Below are positions 7,231-15,003 of a DNA stretch of 64,000 nt, piece after piece (the first letter of the stretch is position 1; each line of letters begins with the position of its first letter). The stretch covers positions 64,001-128,000 of IMG/VR virus record IMGVR_UViG_3300035696_000004. One strand, given 5' to 3'. This stretch comes from a virus. Taxonomy: Duplodnaviria > Caudoviricetes. A program made the translations under genes and the position numbers. Under the pieces are notes generated by a model. It was not told the DNA's origin. It saw only the letters and a list, made by a program, of their open reading frames with translations, and made no database searches.

Positions 7231-8093
7231 TCCAGAAGTTTAACAGGCCAACCCGGTTCTTTCCATGTTGCCGGAATGGGCTTGAAGGCCAACGGACTGT
7301 AGGCGATAGAGAGCGCGTTCAACGCCGCAATGGAGACACGGGAAAACTGAGCGGCACGCGTAACCATTTGCATACCGATCTTCACCGCTTTCAACTTTTG
7401 ATAGAAGAAGAGGTCATCGAAAGCCGGATCATCCGGATGTGTTTCCAGGTAGCTGATGTACTTGGTCAGCACCGGCAGAGGTGTGCTGATATGCACAAAC
7501 CACGCGTGAACCTGTGCTCGCCATTCTTGTTCAGCCGCTGCGATCTGCTTCGGGACGTTGGGATCGTGATCCGGACCGAGAACGAGCCAATCCAGATTCA
7601 ATTCCAACGGCGTGACGTGGAAGCAGTGTTCATCGATTCGGTTGTCTTTCAGGCCTCGGCCGTTCCAAACGGCTTTGGTCGAATAGACCGGTTTCAGAAT
7701 CTGACTATCCTTGAGGAATGACGCGATCACGTCAGATCCCTTGTAACGCTCGAGGTCAGCAGATGCCTCCTTGAGTGTTTGCATCGATGGCCAGATCGCC
7801 GGTATGAGTTCGCCTGTCGGCAACAACCCCACGATGTGTCCGTACTTCTTCACGAAGCGCCGGCAGCGATTGCAGTTGTGCTGCTGACGGACATCTTCCG
7901 GAAGGTTGGCTAAGAACGTATCGAATAGATCGACCGTTTTGTGAGGTTGCCCCTCGCGCGGCAACCATTTCGGGAGTTCGACGTAGTAAAGGCGCCCGCC
8001 AGAGAGATGCATGCAGGCGTCGAGCTGCTTCTGCATCTGTTCGCGGAAGAGGTTGAAGATCGGGTCTTCGTTGTGTTTGAAAGGTTTGGCCAT
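7227..8093 (-). CDS. HNCxxC-motif protein, short paralog of 25705..27366
   Basis: RQQHNCNRCRRFVKKYG vs RQEHNCSTCRRFISMYG. Confidence 0.75.
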   Translation of the reverse strand: MAKPFKHNEDPIFNLFREQMQKQLDACMHLSGGRLYYVELPKWLPREGQPHKTVDLFDTFLANLPEDVRQQHNCNRCRRFVKKYGHIVGLLPTGELIPAIWPSMQTLKEASADLERYKGSDVIASFLKDSQILKPVYSTKAVWNGRGLKDNRIDEHCFHVTPLELNLDWLVLGPDHDPNVPKQIAAAEQEWRAQVHAWFVHISTPLPVLTKYISYLETHPDDPAFDDLFFYQKLKAVKIGMQMVTRAAQFSRVSIAALNALSIAYSPLAFKPIPATWKEPGWPVKLLE

Positions 8094-10373: not shown

Positions 10374-10655
10374 CTACCGCTCCGTATGGCTCTTGACAGC
10401 GACGGCTGCACTGACACTCAGGATCACACTGGACGATCCTGTTGCACCAGCAGCAAAACCAACGTAGTTGAAGCTCCCAGTCTTCAGGGTGCTATACACC
10501 GTCCCGAAGATAAACAATAGTGCGACAGCAATGCAAAACGGATACCCTACGACCCGTGCAGGATCGTAATCCCCATGCATAGTCGTGGCGCAGTCGTTGA
10601 TGACTTTATACAGGATCATTTTGAAACGATCCGTATCGATACCAAACAATTTCAT
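10374..10655 (-). CDS. Small membrane protein
   Basis: 93 aa with hydrophobic segments; coupled to AAA ATPase gene by ATGA overlap. Confidence 0.55.
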   Translation of the reverse strand: MKLFGIDTDRFKMILYKVINDCATTMHGDYDPARVVGYPFCIAVALLFIFGTVYSTLKTGSFNYVGFAAGATGSSSVILSVSAAVAVKSHTER

Positions 10656-11938
10656 GTTGATCCTTTCGTCACGAGTTCCCCGATGAAGGCAGCAGGGTCA
10701 TTTCGATGCTTCATGAATTTGGCTTGCAAGGTGCTTCCAGGGCAGTCTTCAAAAACCGCACCCTCAGGAACAACGCAGCCCGGAAATACCAGATCGATGT
10801 AACGACGAATCGCTTCATCATCCAGAGGCAGGATTTCGAACTGATGGTCGCATCGACCATCCCGCAAGATATTGTCAGCGATGATTTCTTTTCGATTGGT
10901 GGTGAGAAAGATCACTGTTCGATTGAGTTCTTGGACACCATCCAGCGTATTCAAAATTGTCGTTAACGAAACGCCATCGTCGAATAAGCTCCTGACCGAT
11001 TCTTTCCCGTAAGGATCGTAGGTCGTGATCGCATCACTATCAGGGTTATGAACAGCTGGAATTTTAACTTGGGCTCCGTTCTTGTGGGTAGCGGGGCAAG
11101 AGTCAAAATCTTCAATAGCCACGATACCGCCATACGCCATGGTCATCAGTTTCGGGAACATGGTGTCCGAGCAGGTATTCAGATTGACCGCGTACACGGA
11201 TCGATCGAAGTGCCCTGCGATACTTTTGATCAACGACGTCTTACCGGTTCCTGGAACACCGTATAAAAGGATGACGAGCTTGTACGGAATCCCCCGAAGC
11301 CGATACCAGGATTCACTGGCGTAGAATTCTTCGATCAGCTTGACGATGTCTTCTTTAGTGGTGTCCCGTGTCACAATGGTCGATAGTGGTCGCTTAGGAG
11401 CACCGACAGCAGCCGCGAAATTATAGCCTTCATTGGTGTGCACATAGGAGAGATCTTTCGCATATCGCCACCGGAAAGCCTTTGTCAAGTCCTCCATGAC
11501 TTTCTTCGATCGTGTCAGGCAGTAAATGACACTTTCCATCTTTTCTTTTTCCGTCCCTGTCGAAGCTAGACGTGAATTGACGACCCAGAAGAATCGTTTT
11601 TTGTAAAAGAAGAAGTGCGTGCCGTATCCGGGCACCAAGATACCTTCTTCGAGACCATAGTCTCCTTTGAAAAAGAATTCACGACTCAACGCTAGCAACG
11701 TTTTGTCTTTGACCCATATGTTGAATTCCTTGAACTCACGTTCAAACTCCGAGGTCGAATTATTGAGCATGATCGTGGACGTACAGGCTTTGAAGATCGT
11801 GCGTCCCAGTTGATTCGGTACGCTACGCAGAGCCCAGGTCAAAATACCACCGATCCAGATCCCGATAGCCCCCGATAACATCGGGTTGGATTTAGTGAGT
11901 GCGTAGAAGGATTGCATGAAAGAAAGTGGTGTACTCAT
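10652..11938 (-). CDS. BCS1-like membrane-anchored AAA+ ATPase
   Basis: N-terminal TM helix; RGIPYK...LLYGVPGTGKT (Walker A); VAIEDFD (BCS1-type Walker B); TILNTLDG; FLTTN; RDGRCD arginine finger. Confidence 0.85.
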   Translation of the reverse strand: MSTPLSFMQSFYALTKSNPMLSGAIGIWIGGILTWALRSVPNQLGRTIFKACTSTIMLNNSTSEFEREFKEFNIWVKDKTLLALSREFFFKGDYGLEEGILVPGYGTHFFFYKKRFFWVVNSRLASTGTEKEKMESVIYCLTRSKKVMEDLTKAFRWRYAKDLSYVHTNEGYNFAAAVGAPKRPLSTIVTRDTTKEDIVKLIEEFYASESWYRLRGIPYKLVILLYGVPGTGKTSLIKSIAGHFDRSVYAVNLNTCSDTMFPKLMTMAYGGIVAIEDFDSCPATHKNGAQVKIPAVHNPDSDAITTYDPYGKESVRSLFDDGVSLTTILNTLDGVQELNRTVIFLTTNRKEIIADNILRDGRCDHQFEILPLDDEAIRRYIDLVFPGCVVPEGAVFEDCPGSTLQAKFMKHRNDPAAFIGELVTKGST

Positions 11939-12467: not shown

Positions 12468-13442
12468 TTAAGGGTGTGACCAGGCATTCAAATAGTCACG
12501 ATCGCGGAAGGGTTCCACCAAGAACGCTTCATTAAACTGCTCAGCCTGCAAGAGGCGTTCACGAATCCTCCAGAGTTCTTCGGCCTGACACGCATGACCT
12601 TTCTGACCAAAGACATCCGAGAAGCCGGTTGCTTTTTTCAGAATTTCTTGGAGTTCGGGGTTTTCGTAGATGTAGAGTATCCAAAGATGCTCGTAATACT
12701 TCCGGCATTCCTGGATATTGATCGGGCATTTTCCTTTGGCTTCTTGCCAAGAGAGTCCGGTCTGACCTCCTTCAAACACTTTGTAGCGCTGATAGAGTGT
12801 TTCGATCGACATATTCCCATACTTCTTGACCCGTGCGTAAAACGCGCTGAGTCGACGATCCCCTTTACTGCTGCACTCGAGATACGGTGCCTCACCAAAA
12901 CGCAACATGTCATTTCCTTTCTTTACTAAGCGATCCGCAATCGCCACAATTTGATCATCTGTTAAGTCGTCGACATCCATCCCCGGTGGCAAGATATGGA
13001 ATCGATCAACGTGGTGCGCTAGTAGAAAACCCCCTGCATCCCCGTCGCACATAGAGAGCGTGCGGTTAGGAATCGCTCTAAACCATTGGGTGAGGTTTAG
13101 AGGGTCTGCCCCAAATACGGCAACAGCGTTATAGCCCAGCCGTTTTAGCCGATTTGCATCGAATATCCCCTCCTGAACAAATAAGGGCTTTTTCGGATCG
13201 TACGTTTCAAGACCCCACATACCGAGCTCAACATTATGCCATCGATACCGAGAGAGGTAGGTGTAGTATTTCGCCAATTTAGGGTTGTCGGGATTGTGTT
13301 TTGGATAGGACGGGTTGTAAACCTGGAAACCAATCAATTGTCCCGATAGATTCCAAACCAAAAAGGTTGCATCCACATCCGTCACTGTCAATCCAGGGTA
13401 ATCGTCAGGATTGAGATGTCTGGAGAGGAGGTGTTGATGCAT
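12468..13442 (-). CDS. Toprim domain fused to NADAR/DarG1-like domain
   Basis: N-half: LFVQEGIFDA and DGD Toprim motifs; C-half: LECSSKGDRRLSAF..SIETLYQRYKVFEGG..FSDVFGQKGHACQA, matching DarT1-associated NADAR pattern; internal AAAGGA RBS + ATG at 12908. Confidence 0.75.
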   Translation of the reverse strand: MHQHLLSRHLNPDDYPGLTVTDVDATFLVWNLSGQLIGFQVYNPSYPKHNPDNPKLAKYYTYLSRYRWHNVELGMWGLETYDPKKPLFVQEGIFDANRLKRLGYNAVAVFGADPLNLTQWFRAIPNRTLSMCDGDAGGFLLAHHVDRFHILPPGMDVDDLTDDQIVAIADRLVKKGNDMLRFGEAPYLECSSKGDRRLSAFYARVKKYGNMSIETLYQRYKVFEGGQTGLSWQEAKGKCPINIQECRKYYEHLWILYIYENPELQEILKKATGFSDVFGQKGHACQAEELWRIRERLLQAEQFNEAFLVEPFRDRDYLNAWSHP

Positions 13443-13902
13443 GTTCGAGTTCTTTCTTTCTTTTGGCTCTGAGAGCCTGTCGGGTGATCGACCGGCAATA
13501 GGGGCAATATCGGCGCGTCTGATTCCCTTTAGGCATACGCAAACGATGTCCTCGTTTGCAATAGTCTTTGGGACAAGTCCGACCTAGTCGCCATGTCAGA
13601 TTATCGAGCGTGATCGGCTGGTCCAGATCAACGATGGTTCCGACCTCACCTTTCACGGGCGGCCTGACAAACGTCGACAACATCAGAGCATAGAGCATCT
13701 TGCGACGATAGACACCATCGATGCAGAGGCTTACACCAGGATAACCCTGGGTGTCATACGTCACCTTGAGTATTTTACCGGGGAGCATCTGCCCGTGTCG
13801 ACCGATGTGTTCCTTTGAACGGAAGTTCCCTAAGTTGGAGATTTCGTAAATTCCTTCACTCCCATATGCGGGTTTCCAGATTTCATTCATATCGAGTGTC
13901 AT
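13405..13902 (-). CDS. NUMOD4 protein with degenerate HNH region and C-terminal Cys/His cluster
   Basis: EIWKPAYGSEGIYEISNLGNFRS = NUMOD4; HNH histidines absent (IVDLDQPITLDNLTW); CKRGH...CPYC. Confidence 0.75.
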   Translation of the reverse strand: MTLDMNEIWKPAYGSEGIYEISNLGNFRSKEHIGRHGQMLPGKILKVTYDTQGYPGVSLCIDGVYRRKMLYALMLSTFVRPPVKGEVGTIVDLDQPITLDNLTWRLGRTCPKDYCKRGHRLRMPKGNQTRRYCPYCRSITRQALRAKRKKELEHASTPPLQTSQS

Positions 13903-13934
13903 TCAGTGTTCCAAATAAAAAGTATGGATGGGTC

Positions 13935-14248
13935 ATAAGGAGCAGCCCGAAGGCTGCTCCCGTAGTATCACGTAAAGAGGCACTCCATTGCATCGTATTC
14001 CTCCACTGGCCATCTGGATCGATACGATGCAACAGGCTGCTTCCTAAAGCCAAGCTATTCGGGTGCGGCAACGGACCCGATGGCCAGACTCGTGTAGAAA
14101 ACAACTTCTCGGGGATAGCGCCCACGAGCGTACGATTAAGTCAGAAGCGGTCTCGCTACAAACCACTCCGACACCTCTGATGATACATCGTGAGGTCTCA
14201 TTTGCCGCTGCCACCGCCGCATCTCGGGCAAAATGGCGCGCGGCGCTT
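13935..14248 (-). ncRNA. Unassigned highly structured ncRNA (about 310 nt) downstream of hammerhead cleavage site
   Basis: No credible ORF; successive helices found by eye, including an 11-bp perfect stem (14032-14022/13998-13988) and a 9-bp loop-distal pairing. Confidence 0.65.
13939..13960 (-). terminator. Terminator-like hairpin closing the ncRNA
   Basis: GGAGCAGCC-UUCG-GGCUGCUCC followed by UUAUG, the tail seen after other hairpins in this genome. Confidence 0.75.
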
Positions 14249-14309
14249 GACGCCACCAGATACGATGGCGTTTCGTTCCTTTATACGTGGCCGGAACTCA
14301 TCAGAAGCG
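14244..14309 (-). ncRNA. Type I hammerhead ribozyme
   Basis: CGCUU-CUGAUGA-GUUCC(13-nt loop)GGAAC-GAAA-CGCCAUC(GUAUCU)GGUGGCG-UC|AAGCG: full core and all three stems; cleavage predicted between 14249 and 14248. Confidence 0.93.
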
Positions 14310-14368
14310 TAGCCTTGTGTCTGTGCACATCATTGCGTAGCTGTGTAAAAAACCACTCGCCGGACCTA

Positions 14369-14710
14369 CTACCCACGATCAATTTCGATCGTGGACGGGA
14401 TCACGCCATTCCCTTGGCCGAGGTAGCGAACGAGAGCGAATTCGATCGACTTGAGCGGGTTCGGATCGGATTCATCGATCAGGATGCGGTATACTTGTCG
14501 TTTCGGGGTATCCGGTTCGGCGTCAGCGGTTTGCTCGTCGCCGGTGCCCAGGATGGTCTTGACGATTTCTTTGGCACGTTCTTTGATCGTGCTGGAAATC
14601 TGTTCGTCGAGGGCGCCGAGGTCGTCCGCGATGTTCCGGACCCTAATCAGGGCGTCCAGCTCGACTTCCAGGGCTTCGAATTTTTGTTTGAGGGGTACGT
14701 GTACTTGCAT
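14369..14710 (-). CDS. Hypothetical protein
   Basis: MQVHVPLKQK..., coiled-coil N-terminus; last ORF before the ribozyme. Confidence 0.65.
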   Translation of the reverse strand: MQVHVPLKQKFEALEVELDALIRVRNIADDLGALDEQISSTIKERAKEIVKTILGTGDEQTADAEPDTPKRQVYRILIDESDPNPLKSIEFALVRYLGQGNGVIPSTIEIDRG

Positions 14711-14772
14711 GGGTGTTTTCTTTCTTTCGTTGTGTGGAGTTTGGACATAGTAAAGCCAACTGATGTAAAAAA

Positions 14773-15003
14773 TCAGTCCGCTTTGTAGGTGTGGTATGCA
14801 CAGATCGTACAATACCTTCCCTCACCTGCGACTTGGGCGTATTTGAAATCATGCCCTTGTTCACCGCATTCTCGCTGGAGTTCTTCCAGTTCGAAACGAT
14901 GTGTGTTCGCGAGCTCTTGGCGTTCTTTGTCTTGCTTTGCGCGGAGACACGATACTCTCACCGCCATGATGGTCCTATGCGTCATCAATGCCATTCCATC
15001 CAC
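14773..15003 (-). CDS. Small protein with C-terminal Cys/His motif
   Basis: CGEQGHDF...CTICAY. Confidence 0.55.
   Translation of the reverse strand: MDGMALMTHRTIMAVRVSCLRAKQDKERQELANTHRFELEELQRECGEQGHDFKYAQVAGEGRYCTICAYHTYKAD

Follow-up and report, generated by a model that had tools for sequence, protein, structure and literature searches.

This analysis concerns a predicted structured noncoding RNA (ncRNA) in a 64,000-nt stretch of phage DNA (Duplodnaviria, Caudoviricetes; here called the window), which comprises bases 64,001 to 128,000 of the 219,772-bp IMG/VR genome IMGVR_UViG_3300035696_000004. The genome, which has direct terminal repeats and was assembled from peat metagenomes, encodes the tubulin PhuZ and a homologue of chimallin, the nuclear shell protein of Erwinia phage RAY (E value = 5e-37). 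We therefore regard the window phage as a chimallivirus-like, nucleus-forming jumbo phage; its nearest isolates by PhuZ similarity are phages of Burkholderia and Ralstonia. All genes near the RNA locus are on the minus strand. The RNA occupies a gap in which, as the first-pass annotation had proposed, no credible open reading frame (ORF) is found, the small ORFs on either strand having no Pfam or PHROG match. The locus is arranged as follows.

14707 to 14369, minus strand: ORF of 112 amino acids (aa) upstream of the RNA, ending in two stops, TAG TAG
14368 to 13903, minus strand: 466-nt gap holding the RNA, between the 112-aa ORF and the HNH-like ORF
13902 to 13405, minus strand: NUMOD4/HNH-like ORF of 165 aa, directly downstream of the RNA
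13442 to 12468, minus strand: Toprim-NADAR fusion gene, overlapping the HNH-like ORF

Read directly from the sequence, the gap contains the motif of a type I hammerhead ribozyme, a class covered by Rfam clan CL00010, with the following parts.

14309 to 14244, minus strand: the type I hammerhead as a whole
14309 to 14305 (CGCUU) and 14248 to 14244 (AAGCG), minus strand: stem I, 5 bp, open
14304 to 14298 (CUGAUGA) and 14274 to 14272 (GAA), minus strand: hammerhead core
14297 to 14293 (GUUCC) and 14279 to 14275 (GGAAC), minus strand: stem II, 5 bp, with loop GGCCACGUAUAAA
14271 to 14266 (ACGCCA) and 14255 to 14250 (UGGCGU), minus strand: stem III, 6 bp

All conserved core nucleotides, three stems, and an NUH triplet are present, with stems II and III closed by loops and stem I open. 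A14271 pairs with U14250 to close stem III (the A15.1-U16.1 pair), and cleavage is predicted after the GUC triplet, between C14249 and A14248. Both strands of the 219,772-bp genome were scanned for CUGANGA, a stem II of at least 4 bp, and GAAA; two sites were found, and only the site at 14309 to 14244 had stems I and III. The completeness of the core, stems, and GUC triplet in this sole motif of its kind in the genome speaks for the earlier suggestion that an RNA would be released here by a ribozyme.

The 314-nt RNA extending from the predicted cut to just past a UUCG hairpin has a minimum free energy (MFE) of -139.7 kcal/mol, compared with -112.6 ± 5.7 for 100 dinucleotide shuffles (z = -4.78), of which 0 of 100 were as stable. 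All segments quoted in the first-pass annotation, which stated that most of the minus strand pairs, are found on that strand where it had placed them and can pair as it described. The parts of the RNA, listed in the 5'-to-3' direction, are given below; G001 is a related phage described further on.

14248 to 14187, minus strand: 5' domain (RNA positions 1 to 62), GC-rich, with alternative local pairings, not recognizably conserved in relatives
14186 to 14180 (GUAUCAU), then C, then 14178 to 14173 (AGAGGU), minus strand: 5' strands of the closing helix, pairing with 13981 to 13965 in the MFE fold
14172 to 14140, minus strand: hairpin A, GUCGGAGUGG/CCGCUUCUGAC, with one bulge
14138 to 14129, minus strand: single-stranded motif UAAUCGUACG, with G001 counterpart UAACCGUACG (nhmmer and Smith-Waterman)
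14128 to 14108, minus strand: hairpin 5' of AAGUUGU, CUCG(U)GGG/CCCCGAG, in the MFE fold
14107 to 14101, minus strand: motif M3, AAGUUGU, identical in all six related RNAs
14087 to 14079, minus strand: CUGGCCAUC, exact complement of the apical loop at 14014 to 14006, containing UGGCCA
14080 to 14059, minus strand: internal hairpin UCGGGU/ACCCGA within the M3-M4 domain, in the MFE fold
14040 to 14032, minus strand: motif M4, GCAGCCUGU, identical in all six related RNAs
14035 to 13985, minus strand: hairpin B, with a 14-bp stem CUGUUGCAUCGUAU/AUACGAUGCAAUGG, an internal loop, UCCA/UGGA, and a 9-nt apical loop
14014 to 14006, minus strand: apical loop of hairpin B, GAUGGCCAG, GA-UGGCCA-G, with a 6-nt palindrome
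13988 to 13981, minus strand: motif M5, AUGGAGUG; in relatives AUGGGGUG, AUGGAGUG, ACGGGGUG, ACGGGAAG, and AUGGGAAG
13981 to 13976 (GCCUCU), then UUAC, then 13971 to 13965 (GUGAUAC), minus strand: 3' strands of the closing helix, in the MFE fold
13960 to 13939, minus strand: 3' hairpin, GGAGCAGCC-UUCG-GGCUGCUCC, 9 of 9 bp

Within this fold, GUUGUUUUCUA (14105 to 14095) pairs with UAGGAAGCAGC (14046 to 14036) to form the M3 helix, which is closed by the GCAGC of M4, and the CCUGU of M4 starts hairpin B without a linker. A block of hairpin A, GGAGUGGUUUGUAGCGAGACCGCU (14169 to 14146), resembles G001. Two of the helices named in the first-pass annotation, UCGGGU/ACCCGA and the 11-bp stem capped by UCCA/UGGA, are part of the MFE fold. 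Others were confirmed only as sequences able to pair: CAUUUUGCC/GGCAAAUG is present but unused in the MFE fold, and ACCUC/GAGGU is present but competes with the long-range closing helix that the MFE fold uses and that is also found in G001. Likewise, CUCGUG/CACGAG can form 6 of 6 pairs but would cross the AAGUUGU:GCAGC helix, and relatives favor the local CUCG-GGG/CCC-CGAG hairpin.

The RNA had also been described as bounded by a terminator, which we could not uphold. The UUCG hairpin is followed by UUAUGACCC, with no U-tract, and a terminator scan found none on the minus strand. Lacking a U-run, the hairpin does not qualify as a canonical intrinsic terminator and is more likely to protect the 3' end. 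At the other end, a promoter scan between the 112-aa ORF and the hammerhead found none, although it covered sigma-70-type promoters only and others would escape it. With no promoter found upstream of the hammerhead, the transcript of the 112-aa ORF probably includes the RNA as its tail.

Close relatives of the phage were not found by blastn of 3 kb against GenBank phages, both flanking proteins lacked close-relative matches in IMG/VR, and the window phage genome holds no second copy of the RNA. Because the collections offered no close relatives and only identical DNA runs, we searched with the hammerhead itself, as CUGAUGAGUUCC...GGAACGAAAC. G001 (locus L010), a 231.8-kb metagenomic phage, has the same layout, with a hammerhead followed by an ORF-free RNA of ~300 nt that folds with a z score of -5.36 and has a 9-bp UUCG hairpin at its end. 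By nhmmer, the window and G001 RNAs are collinear through short identical blocks, which supplied the search motifs AAGUUGU (M3), GCAGCCUGU (M4), and AUGGRGUG (M5). When IMG/VR was scanned with all three motifs (~1 match expected by chance), the matches were G001, Erwinia phage vB_EamM_RisingSun, and a coding-like chance sequence shared by two IMG/VR contigs. Perfect M3...M4 matches were found in the 243-kb metagenomic phage G003, among whole records of PhuZ-encoding phages (~0.06 expected by chance), and in RAY, among nine isolate genomes (~0.07 expected). The RAY RNA is represented by 15 near-identical records and one relative, AH06, with ~80% identity over the 641-nt query.

Collinear AAGUUGU, GCAGCCUGU, and AYGGRGUG are therefore present in five other PhuZ jumbo-phage lineages (G001, G003, RisingSun, RAY, and AH06). 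The arrangement by which we define the proposed family (AAGUUGU...GCAGCCUGU...AYGGR within an ORF-free gap of a PhuZ jumbo phage) is found in the window at 14107 to 13981. All true matches lie in ORF-free jumbo-phage gaps; the other pattern matches lie in coding-like stretches without adjoining hairpin stems, and one (L160) was confirmed to be inside a 248-aa ORF. PhuZ is encoded in every lineage tested (that of RAY is annotated), and a chimallin homologue is encoded in the window phage, G001, and G003. Among further patterns tried and discarded, one combining block A with UAANCGUACG returned G001 and a single coding match, GCAGCCUGUWG...CWAUGGRGUG returned four coding matches attributable to chance, and the final three-motif pattern returned, beyond RAY copies, only coding or random matches.

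The helices that abut the conserved motifs differ in sequence from lineage to lineage, so that covariation is clear in qualitative terms. The hairpin 5' of M3 is CUCGGGG/CCCCGAG in the window phage, GGCGACG/CGUCGCC in G001, GACC/GGUC in RisingSun, and GGCGC/GCGUC in G003. The GUUGU:GCAGC pairing continues for 5 to 6 lineage-specific pairs in the window phage and G003; in G001 it continues for a single pair, followed beyond a one-base bulge by a 7-bp helix. At the base of hairpin B, CCUGU pairs with AYGGG, followed by a stem that differs in every lineage; a U-to-C change in M5 turns a G-U pair into a G-C pair. The closing helices of the window phage and G001 have the same format in unrelated sequences, with 7 bp separated from a further 6 to 7 bp by an asymmetric internal loop; that of G001 pairs GAGAUGU-U-AGGCACC with GGUGCUU-AAAUG-GCAUCUU. 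The conserved junction contains several invariant G-U wobble pairs. Between RAY and AH06, RNAalifold gave 146 common predicted pairs with 0 broken and 10 changed on both sides (three of these are in the long hairpin, and a single helix holds five), a figure that is biased upward because RNAalifold selects compatible pairs.

These comparisons bear on the simplest alternative, that the gap is a GC-rich spacer structured by chance, with a fortuitous hammerhead-like motif and no function. The lineage has no close relative that would show purifying selection directly, and what similarity there is across lineages comes from pattern searches and extends over short stretches, as such a spacer would allow. 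It would not explain a fold with a z score of -4.78, the recurrence of motif order, hammerhead position, flanking hairpins, and ORF-free setting in five other lineages, or the fact that RAY and AH06 keep every one of the 146 predicted pairs, 10 of them through compensatory changes, and we consider it highly improbable. The first-pass annotation had proposed a discrete, self-processed phage ncRNA outside known families; with relatives, helices that covary qualitatively, and hammerheads at equivalent positions in three lineages, the sequence comparisons now support that proposal much more strongly.

The hammerheads of the relatives are informative in their own right. The same stem II with a similar loop II occurs in G001 and in hammerheads linked to the phage RNA GOLLD; loop II is identical (CGACGUUAAAA) in G001, RAY, and AH06, and stem II of RAY and AH06 differs. 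The distance from the predicted cut to AAGUUGU is 141 nt in the window phage, 126 nt in G001, and 149 nt in RAY and AH06. The hammerhead was absent from the search pattern that retrieved RAY, and when 21 jumbo-phage records were scanned with a hammerhead pattern, only RAY yielded a convincing ribozyme. Stem III of the RAY, AH06, and G003 hammerheads holds a structured insertion of ~90 to 100 nt. A type I hammerhead whose stem II is GUUCC/GGAAC also precedes the Rfam-matched 3' part of GOLLD by ~400 nt in at least six independent phage or metagenome loci (L006, L008, L014, L017, L049, and L058; GOLLD scores of 172 to 202 bits). Coordinates of some of these motifs are as follows.

L150, 707 to 845: RAY hammerhead with stem III insertion
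L104, 1266 to 1480: G003 hammerhead with stem III insertion
L006, 7050 to 7079, minus strand: GOLLD-linked hammerhead
L008, 6537 to 6566, minus strand: GOLLD-linked hammerhead

Because of this placement, the 5' end of GOLLD may arise by self-cleavage, and putative release of a large phage ncRNA by a hammerhead is a recurring arrangement. The word "hammerhead" does not occur in the paper on the GOLLD cryo-electron microscopy (cryo-EM) structure (PMC12286853). Separately, in RAY, where cleavage is predicted at GUC|GGAGU (NC_041973, ~168,445), the resulting 5' end (GGAGU) can pair with ACUCC just past the 3' U-run, closing an RNA of ~470 nt. A pistol ribozyme was also observed at 7407 to 7472 (minus strand) of L007 (42.1 bits, above the gathering score), on an IMG/VR contig that also holds a hammerhead.

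The apical loop of hairpin B had been read as one partner of a long-range pseudoknot. The complementarity itself is exact, since CUGGCCAUC (14087 to 14079) matches GAUGGCCAG (14014 to 14006) at 9 of 9 positions, but it is at chance level alone and is not conserved: 15% of dinucleotide shuffles of the RNA hold an exact complement of at least 9 nt, and exact complements to the apical loop elsewhere in the RNA do not exceed 5 nt in the relatives. What recurs is a palindrome that changes between lineages, UGGCCA in the window phage, UCCGGA in G001, GUCGAC in RisingSun, and ACCGGU in RAY. In G003, two neighboring loops inside hairpin B, CUGACC and GGUCAG, are complementary to each other over 6 nt. 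The probability that a 6-mer is a palindrome is 1/64, and a loop of 7 to 10 nt contains one ~3 to 8% of the time. In the cryo-EM study of OLE, ROOL, and GOLLD, loops that switch between palindromes were taken as evidence for symmetric intermolecular kissing loops in OLE and GOLLD (PMC12286853).

Since palindrome switching recurs and the 9-nt complement is not conserved, loop-loop homodimerization appears more likely than an intramolecular pseudoknot. The latter reading would make the RNA a monomer whose apical loop pairs in cis with CUGGCCAUC and locks the fold. It gains from the exact 9-nt match with one partner in a hairpin loop and from the intramolecular tertiary pairings that ROOL and GOLLD also use (PMC12286853). 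Yet no relative has a loop complement elsewhere of more than 5 nt (the 6-nt pair of G003 lies inside hairpin B), complements of this length are common in the shuffles, and the MFE fold gives CUGGCC other partners. Because both segments contain the same palindrome, they can equally pair between molecules, and overall we judge the cis pseudoknot unlikely. The second copy of UGGCCA, at 14086 to 14081, could provide a further contact between or within molecules.

The position of the RNA directly upstream of the HNH-like ORF (13902 to 13405), on the same strand and with no terminator between them, suggests that it might instead be a cis-acting leader, a 5' UTR regulating the NUMOD4/HNH-like gene at the level of translation or stability, or that it belongs to a mobile HNH cassette. 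Structured RNAs adjoining HNH-domain genes have a precedent in HEARO/omega RNAs. Across the family, however, the RNA lies upstream of unrelated genes, none of them HNH: a gene for an acidic protein in G001, PhuZ in RisingSun, gp204 in RAY, and a 151-aa ORF in G003. A link between the RNA and the HNH gene is not supported, as no relative has such a gene beside it. The RisingSun RNA ends in a strong hairpin with a U-run, a terminator before the next gene. The HNH-like protein of the window phage is itself without a close homologue (distant homologues only, best 38% identity), the usual catalytic histidine positions appear to be replaced, and it ends in a zinc-ribbon-like CxxC...CxxC tail; Rfam gave no HEARO match. 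We hold the leader or cassette reading to be quite unlikely, and the HNH-like ORF probably represents a degenerating homing endonuclease gene that was inserted next to the RNA gene. Given that the downstream genes differ in each lineage and that the RisingSun RNA has its own terminator, we interpret the RNA as a gene in its own right.

Phage homing endonucleases are often located in group I introns, and a remnant of such an intron, or of another self-splicing element carrying a homing endonuclease, was also weighed. The Toprim-NADAR protein matches only the C-terminal two-thirds of a primase profile, which initially suggested a split gene. The idea was rejected because the Toprim protein starts with an ATG of its own, because a second primase profile matches it from the first residue, and because no intron model was matched (neither Intron_gpI nor group II, even at an E value of 10). 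The 112-aa ORF, which ends in TAG TAG, has no family match, including to primase, and is unrelated to the Toprim protein, and the related RNAs are not inside genes. An intron remnant is therefore extremely improbable.

Several further observations concern the neighborhood and the relatives. The Toprim-NADAR ORF combines a Toprim primase-like domain without a zinc finger and a NADAR-like domain that matches the Pfam family of the DarT1-associated NADAR antitoxin; a DarG2-like anti-defense protein of a chimallivirus was reportedly described in a 2026 paper. Two genes downstream, at 10652 to 11938 (minus strand), lies a BCS1-like AAA ATPase (PHROG 7485, E value = 4e-105). The RisingSun RNA makes up the last ~350 nt of a 1.1-kb ORF-free gap directly upstream of PhuZ (L081, 4350 to 5485; ~13.3 to 14.45 kb of the record). 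The first 700 nt of this gap fold extensively and may hold another RNA, and Rfam gave no match there, nor in the rest of the RisingSun gap or the G003 gap. In IMG/VR, an air metatranscriptome contig with a RAY copy (L168, 2153 to 2419) covers most of the RNA downstream of AAGUUGU, and in two fungus-associated RNA-labeled libraries a contig ends inside the hammerhead stem III insertion.

The first-pass annotation had found no match to known RNAs, and systematic searches agree. Rfam 15 gave no match in the window at the gathering score, ARAGORN found no tRNA or transfer-messenger RNA (tmRNA) in the window, and a relaxed Rfam scan of 13300 to 14900 gave only a partial Hammerhead_3 match of 16.5 bits (gathering threshold, 48.5) and a meaningless microRNA (miRNA) match on the long hairpin. 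The GOLLD, ROOL, and OLE models had no match at the gathering score in the window or at an E value of 10 in the region, and the same Rfam search detects GOLLD at 172 to 202 bits in other loci.

Comparison with known systems nevertheless places the RNA among large structured phage ncRNAs, which are already known as a kind. Like GOLLD (RF02032), it is phage borne and highly structured, and hammerhead stem II GUUCC/GGAAC is common to both. Covarying loop palindromes mark the intermolecular kissing loops of GOLLD (PMC12286853), and by analogy the window RNA may multimerize. In contrast to GOLLD, it is ~300 nt rather than >800 nt in length and occurs in chimallin/PhuZ jumbo phages with no tRNA genes nearby rather than in tRNA-island phages, and the two have no sequence or covariance-model similarity. 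ROOL and OLE are likewise large ornate RNAs that form homo-oligomers through kissing loops, ROOL without an identified protein partner, and loop L9.3 of OLE switches palindromes as the apical loop of the window RNA does (PMC12286853); they differ from it in size and architecture, OLE is bacterial and membrane associated, and neither is matched in Rfam by the window RNA. The HEARO/omega RNA of IscB is also a structured RNA of ~300 nt adjoining a gene with an HNH-type domain, but the window RNA has no Rfam match to it, its neighbor is a 165-aa NUMOD4 protein rather than IscB, and its relatives have no HNH neighbor. A 9-nt loop with a 6-nt palindrome between purines is the format in which the HIV-1 dimerization initiation site (DIS) forms a loop-loop homodimer, and GA-UGGCCA-G has this format, with unrelated biology and sequence. 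A full-text literature search found no description linking hammerheads or structured RNAs to chimalliviruses or these Erwinia phages, and a 2026 review says only that phiKZ expresses noncoding RNAs (PMC13282480). What appears to be new is this RNA family, its link to nucleus-forming phages, and its predicted processing by a hammerhead.

On balance, with modest confidence, we favor the explanation that the locus is an ncRNA gene of an undescribed family in chimallin/PhuZ jumbo phages, whose product would be ribozyme processed, probably dimerizes, and would act in trans. The RNA would be transcribed as the tail of the mRNA of the 112-aa ORF, and the type I hammerhead would then cut in cis between C14249 and A14248, leaving a 5'-OH on an RNA of ~300 nt. 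In hammerhead chemistry, the downstream product carries a 5'-OH and the upstream mRNA ends in a 2',3'-cyclic phosphate. The GC-rich UUCG hairpin would protect the 3' end, and the body would form several helices around a junction of AAGUUGU, GCAGCCUGU, and AUGGAGUG, flanking a long hairpin. Two copies may pair through their palindromic apical loops to give a homodimer or a larger assembly. The invariant G-U-containing junction, the rigid hairpin with a palindromic tip, and the same hammerhead in GOLLD point to a stable, self-associating RNA that would act in trans in the manner of GOLLD and ROOL, not as a leader of the HNH gene.

A number of observations weigh against this explanation. None of the Rfam hammerhead models reaches its threshold at this site (GOLLD-linked hammerhead copies are likewise below threshold); in the G003 motif, CUGAUGA...GAAA, stems I and III can fold but stem II is irregular; and no hammerhead was visible in the RisingSun gap by inspection or Rfam. 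Similarity between the window and G001 RNAs reached a z score of only 2.4 to 2.7 under two gap-tolerant schemes and did not exceed that of shuffles when scoring was stricter. A covariance model made from the single window sequence scored the relatives at 7.6 to 11.7 bits with filters off and misaligned G003. A leave-own-out nhmmer profile ranked the locus first in the genome at an E value of 0.2, and this profile is circular because its members were found with motifs from this locus. In the alignment fold of RAY and AH06, the partner of AAGUUGU is not GCAGC but an ACAGCU close by, and the junction model may therefore not be valid throughout the family. The AH06 apex has no palindrome, with CCAUGG on the 3' side of the hairpin instead, and the chance of palindromes in four of six lineages, of the order of 1e-4, is a post hoc estimate. 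Simple M3...M4 pattern scans found no member in phiKZ, FLC9, RP12, RSL2, PhiEaH1, LucasX, pEa_SNUABM_37, or Eowyn; such misses do not show that the RNA is absent from these eight isolates. The RNA-labeled RAY-like contigs have low depth and ends that are not at the predicted cut, and DNA carryover is possible. Public runs containing the window phage are DNA only and all identical in sequence, providing no variants for covariation.

Beyond the favored explanation of an ncRNA gene acting in trans, a more specific version can be put forward tentatively, although we think it doubtful: the RNAs may constitute a ribozyme-released class specific to nucleus-forming phages, forming a kissing-loop dimer or RNA-only assembly as a compact counterpart of the GOLLD and ROOL nanocages, with a role specific to chimalliviruses. 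Examples of such a role would be sequestering a host RNA-binding factor or defense sensor in the cytoplasm or organizing RNA in the phage nucleus.

Chimalliviruses are among the most closely studied phages owing to their protein nucleus, yet to our knowledge almost nothing is known of their noncoding RNAs, and we are likewise aware of little that explains the role of hammerheads in phages. The proposed family can be tested directly at the bench, because two Erwinia phage groups that carry it, RAY and RisingSun, are cultivable. The findings would link hammerheads in phages to one job, the excision of large structured ncRNAs from longer transcripts. If the palindromic loop mediates assembly, this ~300-nt RNA would offer a small, tractable model of natural RNA quaternary structure.

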